From contig OZ237765.1 of assembly GCA_965178125.1 (NCBI GenBank), forward strand, positions 186,001-250,000: a stretch of DNA of 64,000 nt, written 5' to 3'. This DNA is from Bilabrum cf. latius. Lineage: Eukaryota. The notes beneath the pieces were generated by a model. The model had not been told where the DNA came from, made no database searches, and saw nothing but the letters and a program-made list of their open reading frames with translations. Below are positions 889-64,000 of the stretch, in pieces (position 1 is the first letter of the stretch; the number at the start of each line of letters is the position of its first letter). The position numbers and the translations under genes were made by a program.

Positions 889-3800
889 TCACTGGCCGCC
901 ACCACGCCCAAGCCGCTGTTGCTGCGCCCCTTGCAGTGCGTCCGTCAGCTGTCGGATGGTGTCGAGCATCTAACGACGGGGCACTTGCGCGGCGCCTCCA
1001 CCTCCGGAACCAGTTGCCTGTCCAGACTATGACCCAGCCTCACTTCTGATCGAAGTCCCCGTCGGACCGGGGTGACCCCCTCGTCTCCTCCCAGGGGAAA
1101 TCCCCCCCCTCAACCCCGCGGGGGTGGACTCCGCCCGTCGCAGCACGGAGCGACCCGCCGCCAGCGCCGCGGCGTGGGATGGCTTTAGGCCCCCCCTTGG
1201 CGCCGATCCGCGTGCCAGCTCTTTTGCGAGGGGGGTGATCGCGTCCTCCTCCTCCTCCTCCTCCTCTTGCTCTGCCCCTGCCCCTGCCCTTCCAACTCCC
1301 AGCCCGCTGCGGTTCCTCATCGACCCCCGGCTCCGGCTCCGGGTCATGCCCCCCCTCCCGAGCGCCAGACGACTCACATCGTCTTCATCTTCATCTTCAT
1401 TCTCACCGTCGCTGCCCCCAAGGTACCGAACGAAGGCCCCACCCCCCGCCGACTTGAACCGGCGCAACCCCCTGTCCCTGTCCCTGCCAGTACCCTCTTT
1501 GCCTGCGGAACCGGCGACGCGACCTAAGGACCGGGCCCCCGGCGATGCCCCTGCGCTTAGGTCCCGCCCCGCTGCGCGGCGCCCCTCGCTGCGACCTCTT
1601 TGCGGAACCTCACCACGGAACGACCGGTCCCTGTCCCCGTACCCCCTTGCCCTATCAGTTCCCTGTCCCTGCTTATGTCCCTGCTTCCCACGACCCCTGC
1701 CCCGGCCCCGGCCTCGACCAAGCCCAGCCCCCGCAGCGGCGCGACCTCCGGCCCCTGGCCTCATGGCCCCTGCAGCCGCTGTGGATGATCTCGTGAGAGT
1801 GCCCCGCCGGCCATACCTGTAGAACTCAAGCGCGGGGGGCCCGCCCGGAGTGCGCCCGCCCCGTTGTTCCCTGGACCTCCCCAAATCCTGCTCGCCCCCC
1901 TCCCCCTCCCCTTCCCCCATGGACGTGTCATCATCCCCATCCAGCCCAAGCCCGAGATCATCACCCTCACCCACTGCACGGACACCATCGTCGCTGGGAC
2001 TCCCGCCGTACTCATCTTGATCTTCATGATGTGTACCGTCATACTAATCACCGTCATGCTCATGCCTGCGATGCTGCTCCTCGCCGTCGTCCTCGTCCTC
2101 GTCCTCCTCCAGAAGCGCCTCTCGGATGGCTGGAGGCGTGCGGCGACCGCGATTGCCCGCGCCACCGTGCAGTGCACCGCGCTCCCGTCCCAGCTCCGAA
2201 TGTGCCCTGCGCATGCCCATCCCCCCATGCCCCCCAATTTGTTCCCTGGATGCCGCCCTGGGTCCCAGCGGCGGTGCCCTGGCTTCCAGCTCCTCCAGAA
2301 TCCCCTCGGCGAGCCGCTTTACCGCCGGGCTGCCGTCCTTCTCTTGCAGCAGCCGCTGCACGATGGACCTGACCGAGTCCCCCCTGTCGCCTGCCTCCAT
2401 TGGCGCCATCTGCAGCGGGGCGGGGGCACTGGCACTGGCAGTGGCTCGGGGCTCCTCACCATCGCCCAGATCCGGGGTGAATGGACCGGCGGCGGAAGCG
2501 TCGACTGGCTGGGAGGCTTGATTTGATCCCTGTCTCCCGCTTGTTCCCTGGGACCCCCTCGCCAGCGCCCGCTCGGCCTGGTCCATGGCCGCCTTGGCCC
2601 TGTGCCACTCGGCCGCCTTGGCCCTGTGCCACTCGGCCGCCTTGGCCCTGTGCCACTCGGCCGCCTTGGCCCTGTGCCACTCGGCCGCCGCCTCGGCCGC
2701 GAGGTTGCGATCCGTTGTTCCCTGGTGATCCGTTGTTCCCCGGGACTGTGGTTGCTCGTTCTCTCGAGTGGGGCTGGGGGATGCGGACGACTGCAGCGCA
2801 CTGCGAGGCTTGGGGGGCCGGTACGGCTCCGGCTCTAGCTCTGGCTACGATTCCGACGAGGAAGCGGGAGAGGCCTCCATTGCGGAACCAAAGGCGCCGC
2901 TCATGCCACCAGTTCCGTGGGCGCCGGCCGCCGCGCGCAATTCTGCGCCCCGGGAGTCCAGGAGTTCACTCGTCACACCGTCTGCCGAGCTCGATTGGGA
3001 GGGCACCCGACCGCGCCACCGTTGCTGGCGCGATGGCTCCTGCTGCCATTCGGGGACGGTTTCAGTGTGACGACTGGATGGCGTGCCCCGATCCTCGTCC
3101 TCCTCCCCCCACTGCGCCTGCGCCTGCGCCCGCCTCTCTCCTGCTCCGGAAGGGGGGGCCGAAGACGGGGATGGGGTGCGCGATGCGGGGCCGTGTGAGT
3201 GGGCATGCCCTCCCCCCGCGGTCACGACCCCCAGTGCCCTAGCCGCCAGAATGGCTCTCTGCATCCTCTCCCTCGCCCCCGCCCGCTGGAGGTTCACTCC
3301 GTCGTCGGGCCCCCGCAGCCGCACAGCGAGCTCCTGTGCCTTGGCCAGTCTTTCTTGCTCCGAGTCAGGGAGCACGCGGCTCAGTCGTTGTTCCCTGTGC
3401 ATGCGGGCCGTGAGCAGACCCCTGCGGCCAGCTGCCTGGACCCCAGCCAGGGCAGTGGCAGTGGAGTGGGAAGCAGGCGGCGGGGGGCCCTGGGAAACGG
3501 AGCGATGCGGGGGAATGCGGCCGGGGTGCACTGCACTGCCGCTGCGGGGGCCGCCCTCGGACTGCGAGCGGTCGTGAAGGTGTGACGAGTGGGGCCCCCT
3601 GTGCATCCCCGGGGGCGGCATCGTTACAGCGCGGTGCACGGGGCCGGCGATAGCGGCGCCGCGCAATGCAGGTTCCGCCTCCGGTGGCGCATCATCGTCG
3701 TCTGCTGCTCCATATCGCTCCGTATCATTTCGACTCGGGGTCCTGCTGCGGGTCGTCATCTCGATACCAGTCGTGTCGGCTGCCGGTGAGCTTTGATCGT

Positions 3801-6800
3801 CGCGCCGTCCGGGAGTGTTGGTCTGTTCCCCGGAGCCGGGGCCGGGCGGAGCGAATGGCCTGCGGCTGCCACTGGCTCGCTGCATCAAGTGCATTGGATT
3901 GCGGTGCTCAAAGCCCTCGTCACCCTCCTCCTCGGCTGCCTGCACTCCGGAATTGTGACCAGGCTGACCCTGCTGCACTCCTGCATAGCCGGAGGCAGCC
4001 GAAGACCCTGTGTCACCAGGCTGCTGGGAGGGAGCTGGCGCAGCTGTCACTGAGGAGGACTCTGGCAACGGGTGCTGTCCCTGCGCCTGCCCCTGCCCCT
4101 GCGCCTGCCCCTGCCCCTGCCCCTGGCGCTGCCCCTGCCCCTGGATCGCAATCGCTCTCGCCTGCCCCTGCACGGGCAGCAGCGGGTTGCCAACCATTTC
4201 CATTCCGAGTCCCTGAGCCGCAGCCACGGCGGCCTCGATCGACAGCCGGCGCCGGGTGGCGCGCCCCGCCTCCTTTTGCTTCTCCTACTCTTCTCCTTGC
4301 GCGTCGCTCTCGGCGACACGCTTGGCATCAGGATCAGAGCCCCCTGCGGCTGCCGCAGCCGCTGCACCACCATGCAATGCACTCCTCTGTTCCCTGGAAG
4401 CCTCCTCTGCCCGCATCACCGCCGCTGCCGTGTCCTTGCCCACCTGCGCGGCCAGCTCGGCCTCCTTGCGCCGGAGAACAACAGAGGTCCGACGCTCCAC
4501 CAGGTGCAGCGTATTGCGGTGCAGATCGCTGCCCCGGCTGACGCCCTCTACCGCCGCAGCAGCGCCCCCCGCGGGTGTTGCAGAGTCGGCTGGCCCCAAC
4601 TCGGCTCGTGCGGCCCCAGCTGAAGCCAACCCCCCCTTGCCCGAGGCACTCCCCCCCTCCTCTCCCTGCACCGACGACCCCTCGATGATAGCACCCTCCA
4701 CGATCCTGTAGGTCTTGAGTCCTTCCACCGACTGCACCATCCTTCCCCTAGGGCCAGAGAAGTCCCCCCTCTGGATTGCCACCAGCGGCTGCAGCACGGA
4801 ATCGACCTCAGTGTCGTTCATACCCGCTAGCACGCCGATGCCCATCTGCTGCATCTGGCGGAGGAACTGCGGCTCGACCAGGTTCCTCTTGAGCTTGAGT
4901 CCGAATCTCTCCAGCCTCTGAAGGCACTTTTTCCGGAGCCTGGCCCCGAACGTCAGGTGCTCCCCGATGACGTAGTTGATGTCCTTCCTGTCTATGATGT
5001 ACAGCTCGACGTCAGTGACCGCCTGCACAGTAAGCAGCCTCACGGAAGAGAAGAGGCAGTCTATCCCGCCCACGAATGAGCCCTCCCCCAGTGCCACGAT
5101 CTTCTCCATGCCCTGATACAGGTTCACCACGCCACGGGTCAGGAAAGCCATAGAGGTCGCGTAGGTTGCCTCCATGAACACGTACTCGCCCTTGTTGATG
5201 ATCTGCTTCCGCAGTCGCTCCAGGACTGACGCCTGCACGGCCTTGGGCTCGGCTCGGAGCAAGGGCACCTGCAGCAGCAGGGTCTGATTTGTCAGCAGCA
5301 CGACCTCTTCCCTCAGCGCCGGACTGAGCATCTCGAGCATCTCCTTTGTTCTCTGAGAAGCCCTGCCCTCGTCATACCTCGCACTCCGGTCGAAGTGTTC
5401 CAGGATCCGAGCTTTGAGAGCCCGTGGCAGGCGAGCATCCCGCATGAAATACTCGAGCTGCTGCTGCCTGCGGGTCAGGTCCGTCTGCGACCTGTCGATC
5501 GAGTACAGTACCTGGGTCATGGAGGCAACCAGGAAGCCAGACCACACGAGACCTGCGAGCATCACGAAGATGGCGAGAGCCACCTCGCCCTAGGAGAGGG
5601 GCACCACGTCGCCGTAGCCGACCGATGCCATGGTGGCCACCGCCCAGTCTGCGATGCAATCGGAGGCAGAAATCAGCAAGAAACGAGAGTCATGTGTGAC
5701 GACAAAAACACACCGGCAGGCGGAGCGAACACCGGGACAATGACAGCTACGGAGTACGGCAGCGAGGAGCATGAGCAACCAGTGCAACGGAGCACTTGCT
5801 CAGCCTGGGGCGAGCACGCTGCGCTCCTCTCACACAAGGCCCAGAGATACCGCACCAGCGGATCTCCCTCGGATATGTTGTTGTCCACCTCCGACATCCA
5901 GTTTGGATTGCCCCCATCAAACTCGAGCTGTCCCACGAACGCGAACAGGCCAGCTGTCCAGTGCAGGAACAGGATGGCCCAAAAAAAAGTCCCCGCGATA
6001 CGCCCGATCGCCGGGTGAGCGTCCGTTGCCGTTCCTATGTTGGACAGGTGCTTGCCCAGCCGAGCGACCCTCACGATCCGCAGCAGCCGCAGAAGCCGCA
6101 GAAGCCGGATCGCACGGGGCAGCTTTGCGAGCCTGCCCAGGTCGTTGATGTTGCTCGTCTGGTCCTGCGTGTCACCAAGGATCCAGTCGATTGGGATGCT
6201 CGCCACCAGATCGATGACGAACCACCCCGTGAAATAGTTCCAAGCGATCGATCCCGGCTGCACCACGATCTGATCCTTCTCCTCGTCCACGTAAGCCGAG
6301 CAAAAGTTCACGCAAATGTCGATCACGAACACGGCCCAGATCCCGATCTCAATCCCATCCCACACGGCAGTCTGCTCCACCTGCAGCAGGATCAGATATG
6401 GCGTGACGATTGCCACGTACAAAAGCGGAACCATGAGGAAGGGCTCCCAGAACTGCCTGAAGGGGTGCCACGGGAGCAAGATCCACCAGTTGAGCTTCCC
6501 CCGGAGGCGAGTGCGGAGCAGGTGCTCCTCGGCGTCCTCGATTGCCATGATACCGTCCACAGGATCCAGTCCCCAGTCCGCCACGTCATCCTTAAAACCC
6601 CTCAGGGTTGCGATCACCTTGACGAGGCGCTGCACCTTGCGCCATTTGCTGCCCGGCTTGAGCGTCCGCTAGGTGCGCCACTGCCCGTTGGGGCAGAATA
6701 CCTGACCCCTGTGCTGCTCGATGGCTTGCACCCGCTGCTTCAGAGGCGCGCTCGCTCGCACCATGCCCGAGGCTCGCGGGTGGATTCCGCCGTCGCGGTC

Positions 6801-7477: not shown

Positions 7478-10400
7478 ATGGAGCTTCGGAGAAGCTAGAA
7501 CCTTCCACGAAGACGTAGGTTTGGCAGAAATATGTGGCTGCGATGGACTGCTGCTGTTGGCATCATTGTGTCCTGCTCTATCAGTTCAAGTGAGTGTACG
7601 ATTCAACTTCCGAACAACAGTCTGAATATTTGTATCCGTCGCTATATGCTTGTGTACTCGCTGATGCGTAGCATCGCGTTCCAGTGAGTTTGGCAGCTTC
7701 TCAACCCCACACCGCAGGCATGGCGGCTTGCTAGAATGGCGGAACTCGTATCGAAGCTGGCAACGGCCTCGAATCTCGTTGCAAATGCCCCACGGGATTT
7801 GCTGGGCGGAGCTGCGAGGTTCGATTGGGATCTATGTCGGCGGCTCACTCGGTCGAGCGCTCTGATGCTAGCCCACCGCTCGAAGCGATGCTCTCCGGCG
7901 GGCCCATCGTAGACCTGAGCTTTGGTGCATTTCCCCAGGCCTTGCCCCGTTTTCGATCGAAGCGATCCAGCGGGTTTCAGCCGATCGAACCGGACCCGCT
8001 GCCGCAACCTGCCATACCTCCTGCCCCGGCTGCTGCCGAGCCAGTAGGCCAGGACAGTCCTGCATCGGAAAGCGAGGTAGGTAGTGAGCTGGTGGACAGG
8101 AAGTCCACCGGAATCCAGCAGCAAGTGCTGTCCCCAAGAGGCACGGGGGCGGAGGCGGTGGCTGTGGGCGAGCAGGAGAGGCAAGGGCAGGAGAGCCTGG
8201 GACAGGACTAGGATAGCATCGAGCAGCAGCAGGACCATGACCAGGACCAGGAGCAGGAGTAGGACGCCATCGCTGGCGTGTCATCCAACCTTGTTTCCGT
8301 TGGATCCGACCCAGCTAACACTGATGCAGTGGGAAGCAGTCTAGAGGCTGGCCTTGCGGAGCCCAGTGGCGGCGTGGGTGCGGCAGCTGGGGAGGGACAG
8401 CAGCCTGGCGACCAGGGTGCATCGCACGATGGTGACTGCATGGGGCGGGCAGAGCCTCCGACCGGGTGCCCTGGCAGTCAATCGTGGGACCCGGCAGGGT
8501 GCCAGTGCACGTGCCCGCTGGCCTAGATGGAGAGCGGAGGAGCGGCGGATGCTGCCGATGGAGTCGTTGGTGGATCAGGATCAGGACCTGCCTGCCTGCA
8601 CGGCGGTACCCTAGACCCCATCAACTGTGAGTGCCAGTGTCCACCAGGGCGGACTGGCCCTCGGTGTGACGAGTGTCCGCGGCAGGACTGCGCCCACGGC
8701 GGTACCTGGGACTCGGAGTAGTGCCGCTGCAGCTGCCCTGTTCCCTGGAGGTGGGAGGACCACTGCGCCACGTGCCCCGTCCGCCGCTGCCAGAACGGGG
8801 GCACTTTTGATTCCGAGTCGTGTAGGTGCGCGTGTTCCGGTTTGTGGGAGGGTGAGGACTGCGGCACTTGCCAGCCCCTCGAGGCCCTGGCCCTCAGGGG
8901 GGGGCTTGCGGGTGCAGCGCAATGCGGCGCAAAGGGGTTCGACCGCCTGCTGTGCGCGTGCAGGGAACAGTGTCCCCCGCGAGACTGCCAGCACGGGGGG
9001 GTGCAGGACCCGGAGTCGTGCGAGTGCGTGTGCAACGCCGGGCAGCGGGGCCACTGGGGGCACGCGGCTGGTGCGGTGAGCACGGTGAAGGCCGGCGCGG
9101 ACATGAACGTACACATCGGAGGCGTAGCAGTGCCAGAAAAGGACCAGAGTGTGCTCTCCGATCAGTCATCCACAGGGAACAACGCGGCCGGGAGCCTGCT
9201 GCTGCAGCAGGCGCCGTCCGAAGCTAGCATCCGTGGCGCTGGCGCTGGTGCTGGTGCTGGTGGTGCCAGTGCAGGCGCGTCCGATTCTCAGCTTGCGCTG
9301 CTGCTGGCCTCCCTGGGTGCAGGCCCAGGGAACAAGGGGTCCGAGGGCCGTGGGCACGTCCTGCTGTAGTCTGCTTCTCGTGACCCCAGCGTGGGGTCCA
9401 GGGGGATCGCCCTCCCCGAGAGGGTCATGCCATCGGTGGCGGTGTCCATCGGCGCTGCTCCTCAGGGAACACGCACAGGGAACAAGGATGGGCTAGTGCG
9501 GACGTTCTGGTCAGGAGACCGCTGCGAGCTGTGTGAGGCGCCCTCGGACGTCGTGCCAGCTGGTGCAGCCGCTCTGAAGGTGCTGGGGGCTGCAGGGAAC
9601 AGTGAGCTTGCAACCAGCTCGGGCGCCCACGGGGATGCCCTGTCCTCTCCTTCGTAGCTGTTGCTCTCGCTGTGGGGCGCCCGCGGCGGATCATCCGTTG
9701 GATCGGGCCGCGTCATGGGCCAGGGGCAGGCATTCGTGGCCCCCCGCAGCTGCCCCCCCTTTCACGTGTTTGACCACCAGGCGTGCGGCTGCAGGCCTGC
9801 ATGCCCAACGGACATGTGCAAGAATGGCGGTGAGCCGGTCATGCTGGTCGGCAAGGGGGCAACGGGGGCATCGCAGGGTGCCTTTGGTGCCGCAGTCGCT
9901 GGTGCCGGCGCTTCTTCTTCTTCTTTCTCAGGGAACAAGCAGCAGCCGCAGTGCGGGTGCAGGTGCCCTGTTCCCTGGTCCGGGTCCACGTGCGAGGTGC
10001 GCGGAAGCGGCTCCAACCCAGCCTCCTCGGCCAGGTCCTGCCTCGCCGTCAAGCGGCTGCGGCCGGAAGCCCCCAGCGGCCTCTACTGGGTGAATCCCTC
10101 CGGTGTGGACCCCTTGCGGAACGCCATCGAGGTGCACTGCGACATGGAGGGAGACGGCGGCGGGTGGCTCAGGCTGGCCAATGTGGGCCCAGCCCTGGCC
10201 GCACGCATGCTGGACGGCAACACGTACACCCAGGGTACGCTGGCCCGCCGGGGAACAGAGTGGGTGTTGCCGTGCACCCGGCTGGCGGGCATGGACGGGG
10301 CATCGGCCGCACTGTCGGTGCGGGATGCCGAGGTTGCAACCACCCCGGAGGATGCCCAGCCGGCCTCCCCCCGCCGATTCGTGCTGCGGGTCACCATGGG

Positions 10401-12554
10401 AGAGGCTGTTGACTACTTTAGGCCCCTAGGGTGGCGGCGCGAGGGAAACGGAACCGAGCTGTTGGACCAGACGCACTCGTCACACCCAACTCTGTGTGAG
10501 GTGCTGCGCAGCCACGGTCTTCACGAGTGGGCTGGGCGGTTCCGCCGAGACATGGTGGGCGGGCACCTGACCAAGCAGGATGCGGCCGCGCTGGGGCATC
10601 AGGGAACAGCGGAATAGCGAGCAAGCGATGCAGATGAATCGACGGGCGAGGACGGCCAATCGCAAGACGAGTAGGAGAAGGAGGAGGAGGAGGAGAAGGG
10701 TACCAGCGACACCAGTGAGAGTGAGAATGAGAGTGAGAGCGAGGGCGAGCAAGGGGGGGGTGACGAGGAGGAGGAAGGCAGCGCCGACGCAACCATGGCC
10801 ACCACCGCTGCCACAAGCGGCCAGTCCAGTCAAGAGGGGGGGGCAGAGGCTGCTGAGATGGAAGCAACCGACGGCGGGCCGTCACGAGAGGAAGACCAGA
10901 ACAGTGGAGAGTAGCAAGCCGAAGGTGCCGGGACCGAGGCCCGCTTCGCGTCCCGTAGGTCCGTACTCGATTCCCAGCAGTACTAGCAGCAGCAGCAGCA
11001 GCAGTACTAGCAGCAAGCGCCCACTATGGGTGTGGACGGGCAAGCCACCCAGGCGGACAACATCGCGTGGGGCTAGCCATAGACCCAGGCGTACCAGCAG
11101 CAGCTGCAGGCCTTGTAGCTTCAGTAGATGCAGCAGCAGTAGTTGTAGCAGCAGCAACAGGGGCAGCAGTTCCCGATCCAGACCGGGTGGTATGCGGGCG
11201 GTGACATGCGGTTCGCGGGGGCAGGAGAAGGGGCGGGGGCAGGGGCAGCGCCTGGCGCGGCATCGCCGACTGACCCTACAGAAGCACAGGCGCAGGCACA
11301 GGCGCAGGCGTACATGCAGATGCAGATGCAGCAGCAGCTGGCCATGATGGCGGCCTCATAGCCCGGACAACAACAGCAGCAGATGCAGCAGCAGCAGGCT
11401 GCCGATCAGGCCAGGTTCATGCAGGCACCGCAGGGCAATGCACCCGGCATAGCGCCCGGCATGCTGCCCCCCATCGCTGGCATGGTCGCTATCCCCCAGC
11501 AAGCCCAAAGGCAGCAGCAGCAGCAGCAGCAGCAGTTGCCTGCTATCCAGGACATGCAGCGCTTCAGGGAGGTCAGCCCACCCATCGGGGCACCGCCCGC
11601 GCCTGCCGTACCAGTGCCCCCACACATGGGTCAAGCGCAGAGACATGCGCAGGGGCAGGGGCAGGGGCAGGGGCAGGGTAGGGCTGTGCAGGCGCTGCTG
11701 CAGTCATCATCGTCGTCTACTTCCTCGTCGTCTGTGGACGCCGCCGAGGCCGCGGGTCACTCGTCACACGGTCGCCGGCTCAAGTCGATCAAGTGGTCAG
11801 GTCTGGTGGGCTCAGGCGGTGTTCAGGGAACAATGCAACCGGGGGCGGCTGGGCCCGTGTCCACCCAATCGCAAGCAGCGACCGCCTCCGTGCGGAGAAG
11901 TGGCCGCGACATGCGGCTGATGCGCGCCGAGGACGGTGTGGCAAGCGAACATCTCGCCGAAGGTTCGTCGGGATTCGAATCAGATACCGAGTCGGAGTCG
12001 GAATCGAAGTTCGGGCCCGGCGGCAGCGCGGGCTCCACCATCCGCCCGCGCACCATCTCTGCGGCCAAGGCTGCCCTGGGCGTCAGGGTGCCAGAGGAGG
12101 GCAAGAAGGACACCAACAGCACTCGTCACACCGATGACAGCAAGAAGCAGGCGAGCGCGGGGCAGCTGCCCCGGTTCGCCAGCGCGAGGGGTCCATCCCT
12201 GGGCCCGATCGTGCCGCTCTCGTGGCCGGCTTTAGAAAGCGATGGCAGCGAGCAGGACCAGGAGCAGGAGTGGGAGCAGGAGCAGGAGCATCCATCATAG
12301 GGAGGGGGTGATTCAGGGGAGGAGGACGAGTCAGAGCAGCTGCTCGGCGCCACGATCGCCATTGACACCCCGGACTCGCCCATGCCGGGGCTAGCACCAA
12401 GCAGCGCAAGCGCAAGCACCAGCACCAGCGGAGGACAGGGGGGGCGATCGGTGGGCGCCGCTCCGCTAGCGCTTGCCCCGCCCAATGTGCCGATGGACAC
12501 ACCCGCAGAGGCGAGAGCGGCAGAATCGGCCGCCCAGGCCTCCATCCTGGCCCT

Positions 12555-12587
<33 letters not shown>

Positions 12588-23188: not shown

Positions 23189-24016
23189 TCACTCTTCCAT
23201 CTTGGGTGCCTGCACGCCCACCCGCCTGTGCAGCACGAACAGCGTCATCGGTCGGATCGTGGGCTGCAGGAACTGGCGGCTCGAGAACCGAGGCGCACTC
23301 GTCACACTATCGCCCACTTCACTCGCCACACCGACGGAACCAGTCTCGTCTAGATCGCTTGCCACGCTGCTGCTGCCGCTGCTCATCCTCCTGCCCTCGC
23401 TGCTCGCCCCATCGTGCTCGTTGGCGAGCAGCTGCTCCAGGACCCACACAAGCGCCAACCGAACCTTCACGAACCTCTCCGCCAGTGCGCACTCCGGCGA
23501 GACCCAGGCGCCCCTCCTCGTCCACGCGCCCTGCAGCTCTTCCTCCACGGTCTCGAGGCACACGGCGGCGGACTCGGAGCCAACCGGCCCCCCAGCGTCG
23601 CCGTCGCCGTCGCTTCCGGTGCCCCGGCCATTGTACCCTTCGCACGACTTGCCCTCGTCACACTCGTCATTCTCCCGGTCAACCCTCCCCAATGCACGCC
23701 TTGCCTGGCCCACCACACCGCCCAGTATCCCACCACTCGTCACACTTGCACCACTCATCACACCACCACCTCCCACAGCCCTCTCCTGCAGCCGCCTCCA
23801 GAGCTCCTCCCTGGCTTGGAGCAGCCGGCCGAGGTCGTCATAGTCCGCCATGTCGGGCCCCCGGAGTGCAGCCACGTGAAACAGGCGGGAGGCCTGCCGT
23901 CCGAAATTCCTCGTTTCCTTGAAGCGGCGGGCGTACGCCAGCACAACAGGAGGTCCGTGCGTGCTGAGGGGACGGCTCGATTCGCTACCCTCACCCGCAC
24001 CAGCCTTTGCTGTTGC

Positions 24017-24061
<45 letters not shown>

Positions 24062-25237
24062 GCCTGTACCCACCGCGGCTCCTGTCGCTGCGCACTCGTC
24101 ACACAGGGTAGCTAGGGTAGACAGGAGACAGGGAACAAGCTCCTTGTAGTAGACCACGTCAGCGGCTAGCACGACGTCCGGAGCCGGAAATACCCCACCA
24201 GAGCGCGCTTGGGCCGAGGCAGCGCGCGCCCCATCCCCGCGCCCGCCACTCGCAGCATGCCTTGATGCAGACTGAGATGCAGCTGTGGATGCGGCTGCAG
24301 GCAAGGGCGCACGTCCTGACTCTTGTTCTAGTTCTGGCTCGGGTGCCGTCGGGGTCGGGGTCGCGCCACCTCTCTCGGCATCCAGTTCAGCGAGGGACGT
24401 GGCGTCGCTGGCACGCCCGGGTCTTTCTTGATCCGGATCCGATCCCAGGGCAGTTGCAACCTCGGTGTGAGTGGCGGTCCTTACATCCGGTCCCTCAGAA
24501 GCGCTTTCGATTCCGGATCCATCGGGGCCGGCTCGGCTCTCATCAGCGCAACCACCACCACCACCCTTGCTCCCGACCGCGCCTCCCTCCTCTCTAGGGG
24601 TAGTTGCCCCCATCGAGGGGGCAGGGGTCCTCCACAGGACCCTGAGGGCAGCCCCCAGATCGGACAGGGAGCTCCGGCTGCCCCACCACAGCGGAACCGC
24701 GTCCAATCGCGCGGCGCCCCGCGTGGCCGCCAGCCTCGCCCGCACGTTCTGCACGAGCATGTCACACACATCGTCCGTGTCCGTGGCGACGCACTGAGCA
24801 GGTGCTCCGCGGGAGGCGAGCACGAGGCTCGGCAGCCCGCAGGCACCGGCACCGATCTCCAGCGTGCGGAGTGGAGCGCCGACTGCACCACGCCCTGCCC
24901 AGCTGGGCAGTGCGAGCTTCGCGGCCTCTGTAATGCTTTCAAATTCCAAGGGGGGCTCGAAGGTTGGCTTGCCAAGTGCGCTGCTTCCGGTAGGCATCAA
25001 GTTCCCATTGCCGATGCCCCAGTCGGCGCCGCCGTCCCTGGCGACCGCCTTGGCTTCATCCAAGAGCCCGAGTTCCAGCATACGGCTAAGCATCAGTGCT
25101 GCAGGGTAGATCTTCATGCCGATTTCACCGGATGGCCACTGCAGAACCTCGAAATTCGCCTCGGCCACAGACTTCACTTCAGAGGGAGAGTGGCTGCAGA
25201 ACGTAAACCGAGATGGTTTTGATGGCACTGACGACAT
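23189..25237 (-). CDS. SAM-dependent protein lysine methyltransferase, family 16 (METTL21-like)
   Basis: IGMKIYPAALML, LEIGAGACGLPSL, VATD, PLWWG, DVVLAADVVY motifs. Likely ATG 25237 (MSSVPS); the ORF-track extension to 25498 overlaps the uL23 gene. Stop TGA. Confidence 0.8.
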
Positions 25238-27717: not shown

Positions 27718-29251
27718 TCAGGACCCGCCACAGCCGCACCCCCGAGCATCCTCCGATGGCGGCTCCACGAGCACGCCTGTGTTCCCCGTGGCCCACGCCA
27801 CGAACCTCGCCATCCTCGGCACGACCTCCCTGCCGGCCCTGGAGCCCTCCGTGTCGTGCCCCATCGACTCGGTGATGTGCCCCAGGCCGTCCACCTGAAT
27901 GACCCGGAGCCACCCGGGAGCAGGCGCGAAAGATGTGCGTGTTGAATCGTCCGTTGGGCGCTTGTGAGGCACAATGGCCCCGGCAGCTGATGATGCTGCT
28001 GCGTCTCCTCTGTCACTGCCTGCCCTGGCACCAGAGCCAGCCCCAGACCCGTCCATGCTTCCGTACTTCATGCCTGCGCCCGTATGTGCATCTACTCTAG
28101 CCTACACTGGTTCACCTTGGAGAGCCGCGGCGCCGGTTGCGGAACCTTGCTGCGCGGCGACCAGGCCATCCACATCCTCAGGCGCATCCGGACCGTCCGG
28201 AATGCGCGGCGCCGCCACCCCGGAACCTTCCGAGTGCATCATACCGGAACCTTGCTTGGCTTGAGCCCCATCCAGCCCCGCCAGAAATCGCGCGGCGCCA
28301 TGCCACCTGCGGAACCTGTACGCGTGCTCCTCCAAGCCGAGGTCCCATGGCGGCTCAGCGTGTGCGAGCAGCATGGGGGGCAGGGCAAGGGCCCGGGGAA
28401 CAGTGCCGCCGCCCCCGGGCACATCGTCAGGGTCCGCCTCGTGCACCGCACCGGCATCATCATCCCTCCAAGACGGCAGCTGCTCAACGGATACATCCAG
28501 GCAGCCGGGGCAGCAGTTCCACAGGCAGCATCCGCACAAGCACGCGCAGCATCGCCAACCACAACCCTGCCGCACAACTCCGCCGTGGGTGCGCGGCTGC
28601 AGGGGATCGAACCGAGGAACTCCGCAGCATGACCCGCGCTGGGCCACATCATGACCCTCCCCATCCCGGCCTCGTGCCAAGTGGCTGGCGGCGGCGGGAC
28701 CCGTCCGGTATTCGGAATCAAAAATACTATCGTGTGACGATTGCGCGCCTCTGCCACCGCTGGTGCCGCCGCCGCATCCGCATTCCGAGGAGCGCCCGCA
28801 CCACAGGTTCCGCTCCTGCTCGTCCGTGCTCTCATCGCACTCATCACACGCCATCAGGTAGGCGGGGCCTGCGGAACCCCCTGCCGGGATGCGCGGCGGC
28901 GCTCCTGCCGACAAGGCGCCGTGGCCCCGTTGTTCCCTCAGCCTGGCCCCCGGAGGCACCACGCGCCTCACGAACACGTGGGCTGCCCCAGGCATCCTCG
29001 CCAGCGAATGTTCCGAACGCACGGGTGGGCCTGATCCTGGCCCTGTACCTGCGCTTTCCTCTGTGCTATCATGCTGAGGGGACGAGTCCGACGATTGCGG
29101 GCTCCTCTGCGATCGAGGAAGCGCTACCACGACGTCACTGTGTGCGATCGCGACACCATTCGATGACGTGTTCTTCAGCTCTGCCGTCCTTCCGTTCGGC
29201 CGTGCCGGCGAACCACCGCCCTGCTACACGACGGGGGAGAGTGCTGCAGAC

Positions 29252-29321
<70 letters not shown>

Positions 29322-52893: not shown

Positions 52894-55089
52894 ATGAAGG
52901 CACCTGACGGTTCGTTCGTCACAGCCAATATTCAACAATGATCTAGATATGCTACTGAATGTCAAACAGAGCCAAAATCACGAGTGAAAAGCGACGTACA
53001 ACGCGACAAATGGCGTCATTTGCGTCTTCACTTGTCGCAGACGTCCAACGGCGCGCCAAGTAGTCCTGGCTTGGGAACTCACAGGTGTACGATTACTTGC
53101 ACCATGCTGAGGAAGCTAGTATCCCTATTCTGTCGTCGCCGCCAAGTCTACCTGCTTGTAAGTTGATTAGTTGTATGTGTACGCCCGTTACTTTAGCCTG
53201 TTGTACTTTGCACCGACCATCTTGCCTCATCAGTGACTTGGTTGAAAACTGCATTTTTTCGCAGCTGGAACACTCTGCGTGTATCAGCGACTCACAAAGT
53301 ATAGGACTGATGGTCACACATGGAAGACAAAAAGCAGAGCCGGCAGCCGGGGAAGCTCAACACAGAGCCTCGTGGAGAGCCATATGCAGCTATAGGTTCC
53401 AACCGGGCGTGGGCGAGCACGCTTGTAGTGCTACTACGGCCAGGGTGCCGGCGATAATCCACTGCATAGGCGAATCTATTGGGTTGCAAAAGAACCTGCT
53501 GGCAGAATGCCTCCAATCGCGCGCTCCGCGGCACCAGCTCTGGAGGCGGCGATTCAGGCCAGAGACCGAGCTTAGGTCAAGTCTGGGGCAGCGGCAGACA
53601 ATGGCTCCAAAGGAGCAAAGCCTTCCAAATCCTCTACCGGTGGAGACGGTGGATTGCTTTTGAATTCAGTGCTCCGCAGGCACGCCCTAGTTCTCGTGCA
53701 CTACCTGCACCCTGACGTGGCCGCCGGTAAACTGTCCGGCCTCGAGGCGAGCACTACCGGCGGAGCAGTTGCTCGGGCTAGCGAACCGGCGCCCTCCGCA
53801 CCCCCACAAGTGTCCGTGTCTACATCTTCATCAATGGCAGTGCAGTCTGGCGATGCCAGCTCATAGGCACAGGCATAGGCATAGGGATAGGGATAGGGAT
53901 ATGGATAGCATGCCGGGAGCAGCAGCTCGATCGTGCCGCCCAGGCTGCCGCCTTCGAGCTTTAAATCCTCCTCCATCACGCCTGGGGCGGAGAGTGTCGG
54001 TCGTTCCCAACTTCAAGTCAGCTAGCTTTTTCCGTCCGGCCACCAGCGGTACGGCGGTCCGGAGCCGAATATGCCCGGAAGCCACAGCTTCGGAGTCCAT
54101 GCGGCCTCCTTGCCTGCCGTGCACGGTATCACCCACATCTCTCAGCCGAGAGGCACGGGCTTGGGTGTGACGAGTGGGATGGGCAGACCCCGCAGCATGA
54201 GCATCGGGAGCGTGCCATCGGAGCACTCGTCACACCCAGGTAGACTGTCGCCGTCTGGGTCGGACTGGGACGGACAGGACGTCGACACCCTGACCGGCGC
54301 CGCGCATTCCTCGTAGGTTCCGCATGACGGCCTCCAGGGGGTGTCACCCATGCAGCCTGCAGGGTCTGCCTTGGTTCCGGCGAATGCTAGCGAAGGTTCT
54401 CTGGGGTTCTCTCGCGACCACCCCTACCTGTCAGATTCGGACCGTCGCCAGCCCATGCTCGCACAGCCATCAGTCGGGCACGTAGGGCGAGGAGGAGACA
54501 GGGCGCAGCCTAGCATGGGGACTGGACTGGGGATGGGGCCATTGCAGGAGCCTGGGTTGCGGTCGAGCGTTGACTCCGGCATCAGCAATCATGATGGGAT
54601 GGGCATGGGCATCAGCAATGGCATGGGCATGGGCATGGGCATGGGCATGGGAATGGGCATGGGAATGGGCATGAGGACTGCAGGCAGCCACCGGAGCAGC
54701 GAAATGACAACGGGGCCCGGCATAGCGACGGCCGTTCCAGCTGGTGTGACGAGTGGATCGGGGCCTCCGCTGGCTGTAGACACGAGGTAGGCAAGTGGTG
54801 ACGAGAGCAAGCTCGGCGTGTCCCCGGCGAGCACTCCCGGGGTCGATTCTCGCCGAAGGAGATCCAGGAAGCGAAACAGACATGAGGCAACACCAGTACC
54901 AGTGCAAGTGCCAGGAAGTCGCGCCGTGGATCGCGCGCTCGTCACACCTTTCCCAACGCAAAGGAGACGGAGCACTGGGCAGGTGCCTTCTAGTACGCTG
55001 GTAGGGGTTCGCGATGGGTCGGCGATGGGGCTGCCCCCGCAGCTGCCGCAAGCATCCAGCAGCGCTGGGGAAACGGCGATCGACCCAAG

Positions 55090-55121
<32 letters not shown>

Positions 55122-57652
55122 CGTCACACTACCTCCGCACCATGGTACGCCATATGATCGCCTTGGCCCGCAGCAGCCCCGGCATGCAGGGCGAGATGGC
55201 GGTGAACGACTCGGAATCGGGCCTGTCCCTGCTGCACGTGGCCGTCATCTGCGGCGACCACGACGTGCTTTAGGCCCTGCTGCAGTTCGGGGTGTCCCCC
55301 AACGATGTGACGAGTGAGGGACAGCTCCCGCTGGGGCTGGCCGCCGCCCGTGGAAACGGGCCCATGTGCGCTGCTCTTCTGCGAGCGGGTGCAGACCCTG
55401 GCGCGCACTCACGGCGGGGCCTCACCGCCGAAGTCGAGGCCCAGAGGGGGGGCTTCAGGGAACTAGCAGAGGCGCTACTGGTGTGCACGGAGAGGCACGC
55501 ATCCAGGGAACAAGCGATGGGAGGGCTTGGAACAGGCGGAGGCGGCGGAGGCGCGGGCGAAGGCGATTGCGAGGCCAGCAGCCTGGCAGTCTTGCAGGAG
55601 CTGCGACGCGTGTACGGCGAGTGGAGGGCCGCAGTGGATGCTGTGGAGCAGACTGGGTCCCCAGCAGATCACGGGGACGATGCAATTCCAGGGAACAGTG
55701 GCACCACAGAGGCTCCGAGTCGGTAGGGGCAGGCACCCATGGAGGATGTGGACTCGGCTTTGCCTGCCCTGCCAGCACCTGCACTCCCACTTGGCGCCAG
55801 CGTAGGCAGTGGCACGGATGTGGTGGGGACAATAAACGGTGTCATGACTCGCAGAAAGAGTAGCGGCAGCAGCAGCAGCAGCAGCGGCCAAGGGGTGGGA
55901 AAAATCGATGGAAAGTCAGTGGGCAGTGAGCACAAGTCGAGCCCGTCCGTTAGAATCGAACCCGGTACGTCGCCGTTGGCAAACGGAACCGCGCTTGCAG
56001 CGCCTGACAGAGACTCTGATGGTGGCAGCAGGAGCAGGATGGGAATGCCAGACCCAATGGCTGCTGCAGAGATACGTGAGCAGGACAGGCGGCTGCTCCT
56101 GCACGCGCTGCAGACGCTACCCACAGAGGACAAGGAAGCGATGAGGCTCGCAGCGGCCCAGGGAACAATGCATTCCCAGGGAGCAAGTGCTAGGCAGCTC
56201 GATGGATCGGTGCAGGGTTCAATCGGATTGGATAGCGTGGGCGCGCTGGGCGGGGCTGACGAAGCAGTGGTACTGGGCGCAGCAGTGGGCGCAGGAGTGG
56301 GGGAGCAACTTCTTGGAGCCCAAGCAGACGGGGCCTCATCCATTATTTCCGACACGGGCAGCCGGCGGTCATCTGCGTCTCGGCGCCCCGTGCGCGGGGT
56401 GCACATGTCCGTTGAGCCGCCATCCCCCGCGGCACTGGCGGCCGCCGCTCGTGCCCAAGGCGGCTCTATGTCCGATGTCGAGGGCGCGCGTTCCGTGTCT
56501 GCAAGCAGCACCGCGGGCAGCGGGATCTTCGGCGGGCTCGGGGTCGGTATCGAGGACATTGACGTGGTGTCTGTGCTCAGCGAATCGCTGGATGCGGTTC
56601 AGCAGCAGCACCAGGGAACAACAAGCGGTGGCGCCGGTGAGGCCTCTTCAGGTGCGCTCTCGGCTGCACTGGCCGGGATGCGCGGCCGCGGTCCTGGGCC
56701 GGAGAGGGGGGACTCTCGAGGAGCAGAGAGCGACGGATCCTCCCAGGGAACAACTGGGATCGAGAAGGAGGCCCGCAGGATCCAGAGCAACGTGAGGGCC
56801 TGGCTGCGCAGGAAGTCCTTCCTCAGCGTCAGGCGGGCGGCACGCACCATGCAGCGGTTCGTGCGGCGGGCCAGGACGCAGCGCGGCAGGCAGGGGGTCA
56901 TGCTCGGGATCGACATAAGATCGGAGAGTGGCCAAACCGGTGGCGACTCCTCCCCTCTCCCAAGAGGCAGGGTTGACGTCCTGGGAAGCATCGCTGAAGT
57001 CGGCGCGGGAGCGGCTCAGGAGAACGTGGCCGGTCCTCGGGATAGAAACGCGGCCAGGTCGAGCACATCATCCTCTTCCTCGTCAACTCCTTCGAATTCG
57101 AATGCGGGGCGTCAGTCTGCCGGGAGTGGGTCGGCTTCCCCGCCGGACCGGCAGGCCGCCAGCGCTGCGACCATGCTGCAGGCTCGGATTAGGGGCATCA
57201 TCGCCCGGAGGGAGCTGCAGGAGCTGAGGAGGCAGGCTGCAGCTGCCATGGTGATCCAGCGAAACATGAAGAAATGGGCTGTGACCGAGCAGGACGGATC
57301 AGCGGGGAGCCAGAGCAGCGCGGAAGACGAGGAGAGGTAGGGAGACGATGACAGCAGCGATGAGGACGGTAATCTACCGCCTGGCGGTGGCATGCGGGGT
57401 GCTGCTAGAGGAAGGGTTGTCGGGAATTTGAGGAGGTCCCTATCCGGGTCGTCATTGTCGATTTCGATGCAGGGAGCAGGCGATGTGCGGGGCCGCGGCA
57501 GGGACAGAGACAGTGACGGGGCTGGCACAGAGTCACCCCCAATGCGAGAGGCAGGGTCCGAGATATCCTCCCTTCTGGGCACTGGCTCGTCACCACACCC
57601 TGAAACTGGTGAGTCCGCTGCGAAAAGGATGCGGGTGGAGAAAGGATCATGA
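52894..57652 (+). CDS. CAMTA-like transcription factor (CG-1 DNA-binding domain, ankyrin repeats, IQ motifs)
   Basis: Probable exons 52894-52909 (tentative), 53041-53157, 53265-57652. CG-1 domain AK*SWL…PASGTLCVY…YRTDGHTWKTK…ESHMQL*V…L*CYY…LHRRIYW…LVLVHYL. Ankyrins GLSLLHVAV…DVL*ALL and GQLPLGLAA. IQ motifs IQSNVRAWLRRK and LQARIRGIIARR. 15 in-frame TAG; stop TGA. Confidence 0.88.
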
Positions 57653-61970: not shown

Positions 61971-64000
61971 TCACATCTGTCCATGCCCGTACATGGCGTT
62001 GTCCTGCACCTGCATCGACTGCACCGGCACGTGTCCCCCAGGGCCGTGCATGCCAAGCCCCCCCGCCCCTCCACCGTAGGCTCCGCCCGGCATCGAGCCG
62101 TTCCCGCCTCCACCGTAGTACTGATCGCCAGCCGCACCCGGCATTCCCATCCCGTCCACCGGCCCCGCGCTCGCCATGGGCACACTCCCGGCCTGAGGGA
62201 AAGACGACTGGTGCGTGTGGGGGTTGGCCATGTCTCCGTTCACGTCCTGCAACAAAAGGGTCAATGAAATGGCGCGACATGTACAGGGATGCAAAGCGGC
62301 ACCAACGCGCGAGACATGACAGACAGACAGGCGGGTGCACGGCACTAGGGTGCGCCTCCTATCGGCGTACTGCAGCACAGTGCAGTACGCACGATCTACG
62401 CGCAGCAGAGGGGAGCTGGCCAGGCGGCCCTCCGGCAGGGGGAGGTGGGGGGAGGCGGGGCATCCGTGGGGCCTCACTCGTCACACGCAACACCACCCAG
62501 CTGCATTGGCCACGTCACTGAGCGGGCGCCACCTGGGATGCCCTGACGGCCTGTGCCGAGCTGTCTTGCTCCGTACCGTACACCGCGTCCGATGAAGGCG
62601 TGTTACCGTACTCCGCTTCACCGGCCTGGGCGAACTCCCCTCCTGCCCCTGCCGTGGCCATGTCATTGCCATCATCGTAAAGATCACCCGTTCCACTCAC
62701 CGGAGGCGCGGCCGAATACCCGTTGGTGTCGACGTTGAAGTCCTGGTCCAGCGCTGCATCGATGTCCTTGCCAGAGGCAGGGGCACTGGGCTGTCCATCC
62801 ATGTCAGAAGGGACCTGCGAGATTCAAAAAAGGGAGAGGGGGCAGGAGGAAGAGGAAGAAGGGTATGGAATGCAGCAATAGCAATAGCAGCAGCAGCAGC
62901 AATAGCATTAGCCATGCAAGGCAAGGTAAGGCAAGCACACGCACGAGAGAAGGCGTCTCAGCGAGAGGCAACACAATGCAGTTGTTGAAGCTCACCACGC
63001 TCGCCTAGGGATCGGGTCCGCTGGTACCACCACCACCACCACCTCCCCCGCAGCACCCCTTGTTGCTCTCGTACTCGAGGTACTTCTCGTTGTCGGCGCG
63101 CTGCAGATAGTAGGGACCCCACAGCTCGTTGGGGAACCGCTTGTACCCCAGCACCATGGAGGGCCACCCGCACACGCACACGGCGAGGCCGATCATGTAC
63201 CACGATGCAACCATCCAATACACCCCGTTCATGAGTTCGCCGCAGAAGCCGTCCAGCAGGGGCTGCACCACCTCGTCTGCCAGCTTCTGGCAGCCCAAAT
63301 CCTCGGGAAGGTCGTCGTTCAAAAGCGGCAGCACCGCTGCCGTCATGTTGTCGAAGGTACCCCGGAGAAGCCTCGCTGCGGCGGGGCCGATGGTGTCCGT
63401 GTCGTTGAGGAAATCGTCGATGAATTCGTCCATGGTCTCGTTGATCTGGCTGGAGAAGGACCTGTACACGGAGGCGATGGCATGAGCCCCCGAGCCGTCA
63501 GTGTCCACGTCACCGCACGCGCCGAAGATGCCGGCTACCATGGCAGCTGGCCTGAACCGCACCGTAGTGTCACCCTGCTCCACCTCGCACAGGCCAAAGT
63601 CGTCGGCGGTGTCGGTGACCACGGTGCCGGAGAAAACCGACTCGCACAGCTGGGGCGCCGATCCAGCGGCGTACTATACGGCGACCGCGGGCATGGCACG
63701 GCACACGTCACTGCCCACCATGACCTGGGCGAAGAAAATACCAGCAAAGAAGAGGGATGGCACCATCAGCACGCACAGACACACCTGGTTGCAAGCCGTG
63801 CAGCACGCGTGCCACGAACCGCCGCACATCACCAGTGCAGGGATCAAAGCCATCACCGCGGCGAGCAGGGGGAAGGCATAGAGCGCAAGCCACAGACCCT
63901 CATACCCCGTGCTTACGGGGACACTGCCCCCTGAGGCCGTCTCGATGCTGTCCTCAGCCGCCTCCCGGATGGTGGCCTCGATGCAAGCGTTCGTCAGGCA
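61971..64000 (-). CDS. 5'-truncated multipass membrane protein, prominin/tweety-like C-terminus
   Basis: Frame open from 64000. TM segments and CQKL…FCGELMNGVYW…LGYKRF near the end. TAG 63674 and 63005. Probable introns 62995..62815 and 62532..62247; stop TGA 61973-61971. Confidence 0.6.

Follow-up and report, generated by a model that had tools for sequence, protein, structure and literature searches.

The window, the 64-kb stretch of DNA analysed here, is about 70% coding and carries 14 long reading frames. Its genes include a channel-like gene, a gene with Cys-rich EGF-like repeats, a lysine-methyltransferase-like gene, a hydrolase-like gene and a CAMTA-like gene with CG-1 and ankyrin matches, as well as genes for HSP90, GH20 and two pyrophosphatase paralogues. 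Dispersed through this DNA is an exact 12-mer, CACTCGTCACAC.

The 14 long frames contain 65 in-frame TAG codons and no internal TGA or TAA, and they end in TGA (12 frames) or TAA (two). Several of the TAG codons fall at conserved places. One lies between the GYGD filter and S6 of the channel-like protein, in a continuous alignment to the HCN, SthK and LliK structures (E=1e-24), two lie within the CG-1 match and one within the ankyrin match. Evidently this genome uses TAG as a sense codon, with UAG alone reassigned in the nuclear code. The coding status of the CACTCGTCACAC copies depends on this reading. Coding maps built with the three standard stops assigned only 3 of the 13 copies to coding-like DNA, with codon scores near zero, and were dropped after TAG proved to be sense. 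A Pfam scan of 100 of the 163 standard-code ORFs of the motif regions gave almost no matches, and a scan of the window for tRNA genes found none. An informal comparison of TAG contexts revealed no common neighbour that links the in-frame TAG codons to the word.

CACTCGTCACAC occurs in 13 exact copies, a density of about one per 5 kb in this window, and in nine further copies with one mismatch (Table 1). It is not identical to its reverse complement and is thus no palindrome. The split of the exact copies between strands (nine plus, four minus) is not significant (binomial P=0.27). A first-pass annotation of this DNA had listed the 13 exact copies, and an exact match count finds every one of them at the position and on the strand it gave. 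The five near matches that it named are likewise real, three of them with one mismatch (23652, 54936 and 55305) and two with two (16014 and 59380), while six one-mismatch copies had been overlooked (3065, 23320, 23752, 28732, 28838 and 55118). It had also seen no copy in the HSP90, GH20 and pyrophosphatase genes, and the count in HSP90, GH20 and both pyrophosphatase paralogues is indeed zero. The HSP90 has a counterpart with 91% identity, an anonymous protein of a related organism.

Table 1. Exact and one-mismatch copies of CACTCGTCACAC in the window, with the reading frame in which each lies and the peptide read there.
Copy	Position	Strand	Context	Reading
exact	2967..2978	+	antisense in channel-like frame 892-5799(-)	VTS
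one mismatch (position 3 C>G)	3065..3076	-	sense in channel-like frame 892-5799(-)	SRHT
exact	3580..3591	-	sense in frame 892-5799(-)	HSSH
exact	8664..8675	-	antisense in 7594-13071(+)	C-D-E-C of Cys-rich EGF-like repeat
exact	10474..10485	+	sense in frame 7594-13071(+)	HSSH
exact	11758..11769	+	sense in frame 7594-13071(+)	HSSH
exact	12120..12131	+	sense in frame 7594-13071(+)	TRHT
exact	23296..23307	+	antisense in tail of lysine-methyltransferase-like frame 23192-25624(-)	VTS
one mismatch (position 7 T>C)	23320..23331	+	antisense; 24 nt past 23296	
one mismatch (position 2 A>C)	23652..23663	+	antisense	
exact	23734..23745	+	antisense	VTS
one mismatch (position 6 G>A, CpG transition)	23752..23763	+	antisense; 18 nt past 23734	
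exact	24093..24104	+	antisense; CAGGGAACAA 24 nt later	CDEC
one mismatch (position 3 C>A)	28732..28743	-	sense in hydrolase-like frame 27721-30447(-)	
one mismatch (position 6 G>A)	28838..28849	+	antisense	CDEC
exact	54165..54176	-	antisense in CAMTA-like frame 53246-57649(+); left arm of inverted repeat	VTS
exact	54224..54235	+	sense in CAMTA-like frame; right arm of inverted repeat	HSSH
exact	54744..54755	-	antisense	VTS
one mismatch (position 2 A>G)	54936..54947	+	sense	LVT frame
one mismatch (position 3 C>G)	55118..55129	+	sense	QSSH ending a poly-Q run
one mismatch (position 12 C>T)	55305..55316	-	antisense; ankyrin-model-matched region	VTS
exact	62475..62486	+	outside long coding-like frames; ~330 nt beyond stop of 62807-64000(-)	

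The word is enriched over every null model that we applied. A uniform model expects 0.008 copies of a 12-mer on both strands (2 x 64000 / 4^12), in line with the earlier estimate of about 0.01, and all of 100 dinucleotide-preserving shuffles contained zero copies. The counts observed at zero, one, two and three mismatches were 13, 9, 12 and 47, against expectations of 0.01, 0.39, 4.9 and 48 from a 3rd-order Markov model and 0.18, 1.3, 9.3 and 59 from a 5th-order model. Exact copies thus stand more than 1000-fold above the 3rd-order expectation. Shuffling synonymous codons, which keeps all proteins and the codon usage of each gene, gave 1.18 exact copies on average and never more than 3 in 500 shuffles, a count that includes one non-genic copy left unshuffled, and shuffling codon order gave 1.01. 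At most 0.2 genic copies are expected under any of these models. The first-pass annotation had let its proposal stand or fall with genome-wide enrichment over a null that preserves codons and amino acids, and in the window such enrichment holds. The evidence covers 64 kb of one strain.

Long reading frames contain 12 of the 13 exact copies, the sole exception being the copy at 62475, which is non-coding. Relative to the genes, five are sense and seven antisense, or nine and 12 when near copies are added. The exact copies use four of the five stop-free frames of CACTCGTCACAC, and with near copies all five are used. Depending on the frame, the word is read as HSSH, TRHT, VTS or CDEC. The same translations (HSSH, VTS, CDEC and TRH) had been reported before and are confirmed, with the qualification that TAG has to be read through for their frames to be open. 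The effect on the proteins is large, with HSSH found four times against 0.08 expected in shuffles, an excess of about 50-fold, and CDEC three times against 0.01. All four HSSH tetrapeptides use the codons of CACTCGTCACAC, a choice of codons whose probability given the peptide is 0.0097. The codons that the word imposes include rare ones (TCA, 9% of Ser; AGT, 8% of Ser; TGT, 15% of Cys). When copies were mapped onto Pfam matches, 0 of the 12 genic exact copies fell within a matched stretch.

That selection on proteins cannot account for the word had been argued from the letters alone, and our analysis bears this out, since shuffles that keep proteins and codon usage fail to produce it and its frames and strands differ between copies. 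CACTCGTCACAC occupies several frames on both strands, is absent from protein-preserving shuffles and forces rare codons. It is therefore a signal at the level of DNA that lies within coding sequence. This was the core proposal of the first-pass annotation, which named several mechanisms and chose none of them.

These results also bear on whether the word could come about through low-complexity protein sequence, through codon bias or by chance, or be an artefact of sequencing or assembly such as an adapter. We give this almost no weight. The genes that host the copies are low-complexity and GC-rich, as a by-product would have it, yet within the window the null models and the variation of frame and strand from copy to copy refute it, as do independent sequencing runs. 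DNA contigs of run X1 cross the copies at 8664, 10474, 11758 and 12120 without differences. Three more runs, which come from two other studies, agree with them: contigs of X5, X6 and X7 span 8664 and 10474, and contigs of X6 and X7 span 11758 and 12120, all with zero differences. We call these contigs RNA-like, a status that is a guess for X5-X7, with X5 classed as 'probably DNA'. No variation was seen at CACTCGTCACAC sites across the four runs, and because contigs of independent runs agree at four copies, the word is not an assembly artefact. Joints of the form GT..AG or CT..AC number five in X5 and X7 and one in X6, and X1 is without them.

CACTCGTCACAC is a discrete 12-bp unit. Each of its 12 positions carries 1.7-2.4 bit of information, flanking positions do not exceed 0.7 bit, and information is at background on both edges. 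Around the copies there are no conserved flanks, and the flanking sequences are unrelated. We found no target-site duplications; matches of 3-4 nt between flanks, which occur by chance at 10 of the 13 copies and are lacking at three, do not abut the word. A repeat finder built no family on CACTCGTCACAC copies among the 20 families listed of at least 60 direct ones. The copies might have been parts of a longer dispersed repeat, as the first-pass annotation had considered, and with sharp edges and unrelated flanks no such repeat was found.

How a copy arose could be asked of one exact copy only, that at 8664. Its C-D-E-C aligns gap-free to CATC and CGTC in two sister repeats, and this copy thus originated at its site and not by insertion. 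Ankyrin models match the region around the near copy at 55305, whose repeat we take to be of normal length, judging by the ankyrin consensus. Homologue searches with the tail of the channel gene and with the CG-1 region (TAG as X) returned none, and a search with the variable CAMTA region recovered nothing but a fragment of the gene itself, 100% identical to it. The copies are very unlikely to be 12-nt mobile or templated insertions, or what is left (a conserved core, an end or a footprint) of a dispersed repeat or MITE that has decayed, an origin largely refuted by the unrelated flanks, the lack of target-site duplications and of a repeat family among those listed, and the two copies just described. 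What speaks for insertion is that 12 is a multiple of three, so that the reading frame would be kept, that some transposon ends start with CAC, as CACTCGTCACAC does, and that one inverted pair, 59 nt apart from start to start (54165/54224), resembles a miniature element.

The positions of the word appear unevenly tolerant of change, and its sites are clustered. In five of the nine one-mismatch copies the change falls at positions 2-3 (P=0.009, in a small sample of nine sites), and four of the nine variants are transversions. The core TCGTCACAC occurs 20 times, and the bases that precede it are C in 18 of 20, A in 16 of 20 and C in 16 of 20. Sites with at most one mismatch have a variance-to-mean ratio of 3.04 in 2-kb bins, and one cluster holds six of them in 1.2 kb (54165-55316). 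Nucleosome-like spacing was rejected: gaps of 182, 187 and 192 nt fit it, but others, among them 98, 332, 341, 515 and 520 nt, do not. The copies at 54165 and 54224 form a perfect 14-bp inverted repeat, which folds as DNA at -26.7 kcal/mol (z-score -4.06) and could form a 14-bp stem. A general preference for hairpins was rejected, neighbours less than 200 nt apart forming five inverted pairs and four direct ones.

CACTCGTCACAC might instead act in RNA, as the arm of a hairpin, for which the 54165/54224 stem would be suited, as a small-RNA target or as an RNA-binding-protein site. The RNA-like contigs run across four copies (8664, 10474, 11758 and 12120), and a companion word, CAGGGAACA, is strand-specific. 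CACTCGTCACAC itself has no gene-strand preference, neighbouring copies are inverted no more often than direct, and the window has no Rfam match. We consider an RNA-level role improbable.

We tentatively favour the reading that CACTCGTCACAC is the recognition site of a sequence-specific double-stranded-DNA-binding protein whose footprint is about 12 bp. The binding itself is one that we infer, and we hold this reading to be plausible, if somewhat short of probable. A pressure on DNA sequence would create and keep the sites in place, and they would overlie coding sequence where the protein tolerates HSSH, TRHT, VTS or CDEC, forming homotypic clusters in both orientations. That they lie mostly in long low-complexity parts of genes would follow from the high coding share of the window. 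Our guess is that the putative binding serves chromatin or chromosome organisation or recombination and not classical promoter control, which is disfavoured because the clusters are in gene bodies. The TGACG at the centre of the word is the half-site of ATF/CREB-type bZIP factors, and we treat it as a lead only.

Some features fit a binding site less well. The location of 12 of 13 copies in coding frames and not in promoters is unusual for transcription-factor sites. Exact copies also outnumber one-mismatch copies (13 to 9) despite 36 possible one-mismatch variants, so the word is sharper than most binding-site families, and an attractor of conversion or repair would fit as well.

Such an attractor is the main rival to a binding site. 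An enzyme that recognises near-cognate sequences would repair mismatches toward the canonical 12-mer where protein selection allows, by biased repair or very-short-patch conversion, and the word would spread by molecular drive without function. We regard this as possible but rather doubtful, and we know of no repair system specific for 12 bp. Besides the surplus of exact over one-mismatch copies, the disappearance of the excess at three mismatches (47 against 48) speaks for an attractor, as does the origin of at least one copy in place without a change of length. CACTCGTCACAC is moreover one of several over-represented words that co-localise in the same regions, all of which track GC content, and a regional process is therefore possible. 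Biased repair is among the neutral processes discussed for the HIP1 word of cyanobacteria (PMC5861425), although that study favoured selection over repair. For CACTCGTCACAC, the edges are exactly sharp, whereas conversion tracts from a donor should bring flanking bases with them, and the uneven distribution of mismatches over positions and the share of transversions also speak against repair.

Eukaryotic precedents for the favoured binding-site reading are partial. The sites of yeast general regulatory factors and the CRE-like M26 hotspot of fission yeast are 7-13 bp long and function whichever way they point. M26, a recombination hotspot found inside a coding region, has a TGACG core, which CACTCGTCACAC shares. 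The sites of such DNA-binding factors are degenerate and mostly located in promoters, and we know of none enriched hundreds of fold within coding DNA.

Some bacteria carry exact, hyper-abundant words that prevail over coding preferences, among them uptake sequences, HIP1 and Chi, a classic phenomenon that is still partly unexplained. Like the USS of Pasteurellaceae and the DUS of Neisseria, CACTCGTCACAC is short, exact and hyper-abundant on either strand, lies mostly within coding DNA and in several frames, and inflates the peptides that it encodes. Unlike them it resides in a eukaryotic nuclear genome, a setting for which we know of no counterpart of uptake-driven word accumulation. The frames used by USS and DUS correlate with preferred codons (PMC2817400), whereas CACTCGTCACAC imposes non-preferred codons. 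HIP1 (GCGATCGC) is hyper-abundant within and between reading frames, and the study on it reports no peptide, RNA or gene-regulation role, a debate between selection and biased repair, and a proposed role in chromosome structure (Xu, Lawrence and Durand 2018, PMC5861425). This bacterial word is palindromic, 8 bp long and 15- to 300-fold over-represented, and CACTCGTCACAC differs from it in being a non-palindromic 12-mer with a far larger excess over the 3rd-order Markov expectation. Chi of E. coli is another short word that occurs about once per 5 kb within coding DNA, a density matched by CACTCGTCACAC. The orientation of Chi follows replication, and its action depends on RecBCD, an enzyme absent from eukaryotes; the strand split of CACTCGTCACAC is not significant.

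A search of the literature accessible to us found no comparable word described in a eukaryotic nuclear genome, nor any description of this organism; the papers in which the words themselves were matched are unrelated by title and abstract, and we take those matches for primers or oligonucleotides. If the pattern holds genome-wide, it would amount to a eukaryotic DNA-level signal strong enough to impose HSSH and similar tetrapeptides on many proteins, and the 12-bp word could serve as bait, a tractable handle on the underlying factor or process.

CACTCGTCACAC is accompanied by other words. CAGGGAACA occurs 25 times in sense and three times in antisense orientation (n=28), evenly over all three phases, and GGTTGCAACC, a separate palindrome, occurs eight times in the window. 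A metagenome scan for the pattern CACTCGTCACAC, N24-54, CAGGGAACAA returned two loci with one identical, unrelated sequence, which carry single copies of both words and have no 31-mers in common with the window; we read them as chance. Conceivably, although we think it on the unlikely side, a small vocabulary of exact words is written across the genes independently of frame and together forms a genome-wide marking system, maintained by selection or by drive. At least one word (CACTCGTCACAC) would be read from double-stranded DNA, and at least one (CAGGGAACA) from the transcript or in an orientation set by transcription. Such a system might serve, for example, the distinction of self from non-self, chromosome organisation or the licensing of transcripts, and it would be a eukaryotic counterpart of uptake sequences and HIP1 that visibly reshapes proteins. 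The organism, which is without a close sequenced relative, combines the reading of TAG as sense with at least one further word of strong sense bias.

Chance, codon bias, peptide selection, artefact and a longer repeat are all excluded as the source of the 12-mer CACTCGTCACAC, the most frequent non-trivial 12-mer of the window. Its 13 exact copies claimed by the first-pass annotation are all present, nine on the forward and four on the reverse strand, and the five near matches reported with them are genuine; six further one-mismatch copies can be added. The word arose in none of 100 dinucleotide-preserving shuffles, while sites with at most one mismatch number 22 in the 64-kb window against 0.37 expected. 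The mismatch spectrum is unusually sharp, with 13, 9, 12 and 47 sites at 0, 1, 2 and 3 mismatches, where a third-order Markov model expects 0.01, 0.39, 4.9 and 48 and a fifth-order model 0.18, 1.3, 9.3 and 59.

The word is also sharply bounded. Information content is 1.7-2.4 bit throughout the word and no higher than 0.7 bit at any flanking position, the 60-base flanks on each side are unrelated between copies, and no target-site duplications were seen at them. The 20 listed of at least 60 direct repeat families were all either codon-repeat families or came from the duplicated pyrophosphatase genes. With flanks unrelated and edges sharp, the copies are not parts of a longer dispersed repeat, a possibility raised in the first-pass annotation. 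Nor is the word an artefact, since contigs of four sequencing runs agree with the window. Run X1 (DNA contigs) and runs X5, X6 and X7 (RNA-like contigs), the latter three from two studies other than the source of X1, show 0 differences over 8001-10662 (X7 from 8594), and X6 and X7 contigs also cover 11689-12543. Within the covered stretches lie the copies at 8664, 10474, 11758 and 12120, and the four runs show no variation at sites of the word. Contigs of X1, X5 and X7 also join 12136, just past the 12120 copy, to 23293, just before the 23296 copy, with a shorter side of 23 letters; this joint probably stems from another genomic locus carrying CACTCGTCACAC, which hints that the word is present beyond the window too. 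At 26561 and 27770, X7 alone has G for the window's A (one contig each, depths 13 and 3), which could be error, allele or editing.

TAG is a sense codon in the window, as established by frame and stop counts together with TAGs in poly-Q runs, domain matches and RNA-like contigs. Under standard stops 3 frames reach at least 800 codons, whereas with TAG read through 10 do, and the motif-rich regions turn into giant frames (Table); reading TAA through leaves the count of long frames unchanged. In frame 0, the 14 long frames contain 65 TAG, no internal TGA and no internal TAA, and terminate in 12 TGA and 2 TAA, and the five alternative frames of these regions mostly contain far more TGA (at most 42 each). 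In-frame TAGs lie inside poly-Q runs, in an ankyrin helix and in a (TAGGGA)n array, the counterpart of (CAGGGG)n Gln-Gly arrays in genes nearby. One stands immediately past the selectivity filter (GYGD) of a channel. This channel aligns to solved HCN, SthK and LliK structures (E=1e-24) in one continuous stretch, running from the filter across S6 and the C-linker and on into the cyclic-nucleotide-binding domain. A CAMTA-like gene has two TAGs within its CG-1 domain match and one within its ankyrin match, and RNA-like contigs cross seven in-frame TAGs colinearly. The encoded residue is most likely Gln, with TAG making up 8% of codons so read; the 64-kb window contains no tRNA genes. UAG-only reassignment is described from very few eukaryotes, to Gln in Iotanema and to Leu in a rhizarian (PMC5304391).

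Maps with three standard stops had given codon-usage scores near zero around CACTCGTCACAC and placed 3 of 13 copies in coding-like segments; the view of the word as mostly non-coding was dropped after the TAG read-through map, on which 12 of the 13 exact copies fall inside long frames. Five of these are sense and seven antisense relative to the frame, and none occupies the sole frame that would yield TGA. The translations previously assigned, HSSH, VTS, CDEC and TRH (here TRHT), were each found according to the frame of the copy.

Features located in the window
Feature	Positions	Strand	Details
Exact CACTCGTCACAC, sense	3580, 10474, 11758, 54224		HSSH
Exact CACTCGTCACAC, sense	12120		TRHT
Exact CACTCGTCACAC, antisense	2967, 23296, 23734, 54165, 54744		VTS
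Exact CACTCGTCACAC, antisense	8664, 24093		CDEC
Exact CACTCGTCACAC, non-genic	62475		
Long frame	7594-13074	+	1826 codons, 22 in-frame TAG
Long frame	53246-57652	+	1468 codons, 15 in-frame TAG
Long frame	889-5799	-	1636 codons, 6 in-frame TAG
CAGGGAACA	e.g. 1865-4388(-), 8961-11824(+), 55504-56744(+)		28 copies; synonymous-shuffle mean 1.5
Palindrome GGTTGCAACC	10332, 13147, 25378, 26314, 27676, 29728, 37241, 60092		8 sites
GCGCGGCGCC	e.g. 987, 1574, 16137, 24709, 28204, 28290, 58747, 60286		12 sites

The word dictates the peptides, not the reverse. HSSH occurs four times against 0.08 expected, in all four cases with the codons of CACTCGTCACAC (probability given the peptide 0.0097), and 6 of 8 VTS tripeptides are likewise encoded with them. 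The codons imposed include rare ones, namely TCA (9% of Ser), AGT (8% of Ser) and TGT (15% of Cys). Shuffling synonymous codons within each gene (n=500), which preserves all proteins and per-gene codon usage, left a mean of 1.18 and a maximum of 3 exact copies, including the untouched non-genic copy, and codon-order shuffling left 1.01. Within the window the 13 copies therefore lie well above a codon- and amino-acid-preserving null, and these shuffles and codon choices uphold the earlier view that selection on proteins cannot account for CACTCGTCACAC.

Two sites were compared for insertion versus origin in place. The 8664 copy encodes C-D-E-C within a Cys-rich EGF-like repeat array, and internal-repeat alignment matches it without gaps to C-A-T-C and C-G-T-C of two sister repeats. 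Judged from this gap-free alignment, the copy is not a 12-nt insertion; it came about at a constrained CxxC, either through substitutions or through a replacement that left the length unchanged. A second site, the one-mismatch copy at 55305, falls within a region matched by ankyrin models, in what we read as a repeat of normal length against the consensus. The evidence argues against insertion as the source of CACTCGTCACAC. The variable regions had no homologues in the protein collections searched.

The anatomy of the word is uneven. Positions 4-12 form its core, TCGTCACAC, which has 20 copies, preceded by C in 18, A in 16 and C in 16 of the 20 at the three 5' bases. Positions 2-3 hold the change in five of nine one-mismatch copies (P=0.009, small sample), and two carry a CpG transition at position 6. 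This tolerance, in a small sample, is more in line with a recognition matrix than with simple templated-copy decay. Sites are clustered (variance/mean 3.04 in 2-kb bins), with six within 1.2 kb in the CAMTA-like gene; neighbours are direct (18 and 24 nt apart) as well as inverted, and one pair forms a perfect 14-bp inverted repeat.

Our leading, still tentative, reading is that CACTCGTCACAC is a putative double-stranded DNA recognition site for a highly specific binding factor. Its sites would be maintained by DNA-level pressure and sited where proteins tolerate them. Orientation independence, sharp edges, uneven positional tolerance and homotypic clusters speak for this, whereas the position of the sites within gene bodies, not promoters, and the unusual dominance of exact copies speak against it. 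That dominance would be accounted for by the main rival, a neutral attractor in which repair or very-short-patch conversion is biased toward CACTCGTCACAC, but this process is a poorer fit to the edges and to the uneven tolerance, and we consider it rather unlikely. A role at the RNA level is highly improbable for CACTCGTCACAC, although it suits the companion word CAGGGAACA.

By pattern, the nearest known systems are bacterial. Uptake sequences lie in coding DNA, use several frames and inflate the encoded peptides (PMC2817400), as CACTCGTCACAC does. For HIP1, PMC5861425 settles the selection-versus-repair question for selection and proposes a role in chromosome structure. CACTCGTCACAC belongs to neither family: it is non-palindromic, imposes non-preferred codons and has a eukaryotic host. 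The literature searched, supplements aside, contained no description of it or of a comparable eukaryotic word, and the hit returned by the one metagenome scan was judged chance. The whole analysis covers 64 kb of one strain.

Companion-word excess and orientation indicate a vocabulary of words in this genome that do not depend on frame; one or more of them are strand-symmetric, and one or more are oriented with transcription. Each companion lies far above both Markov and synonymous-codon nulls. CAGGGAACA, about 20-fold over the latter, is sense in 25 copies and antisense in 3 (P=3e-5), and its sense copies are divided 9/8/8 among the codon phases; it thus fits an RNA-level or transcription-oriented word. 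Eighteen copies extend to CAGGGAACAA. Over 2-kb bins, CACTCGTCACAC and CAGGGAACA tend to occur together (Spearman 0.61, P=2e-4), and each follows GC content. GGTTGCAACC, often C-GGTTGCAACC-G, is about 115-fold over Markov-3 expectation, with a synonymous-shuffle mean of 3.15 that includes 3 untouched sites outside frames. GCGCGGCGCC has a shuffle mean of 0.83 and is antisense in 9 of 12.

No CACTCGTCACAC site with at most one mismatch lies at 30-53 kb (7.9 expected), and CAGGGAACA and GCGCGGCGCC have none at 30000-53000. GC content is lower in this 23-kb compartment (0.51-0.61), where HSP90, GH20-ricin, a lectin gene, an AAA-like gene and a pair of pyrophosphatase paralogues with introns are located, which bears out the earlier remark that HSP90, the pyrophosphatases and GH20 lack the word. 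HSP90 (31253-33361, +) shares 91% identity with a single anonymous metagenome protein and 58-69% with all other matches listed, among which the named ones are mostly stramenopiles (oomycetes, placidids, a bicosoecid); on these identities the organism has no close named relative and seems to belong to a poorly sampled lineage. The inorganic pyrophosphatases form a tandem duplicate with introns (47203-48487 and 49225-50498, +), sharing blocks of 300 nt at 88% and 233 nt at 96% identity, ~2.07 kb apart. A perfect 24-nt tandem repeat of 4.3 copies at 2587-2689 encodes AEWHRAKA repeats in the tail of a channel-like gene.
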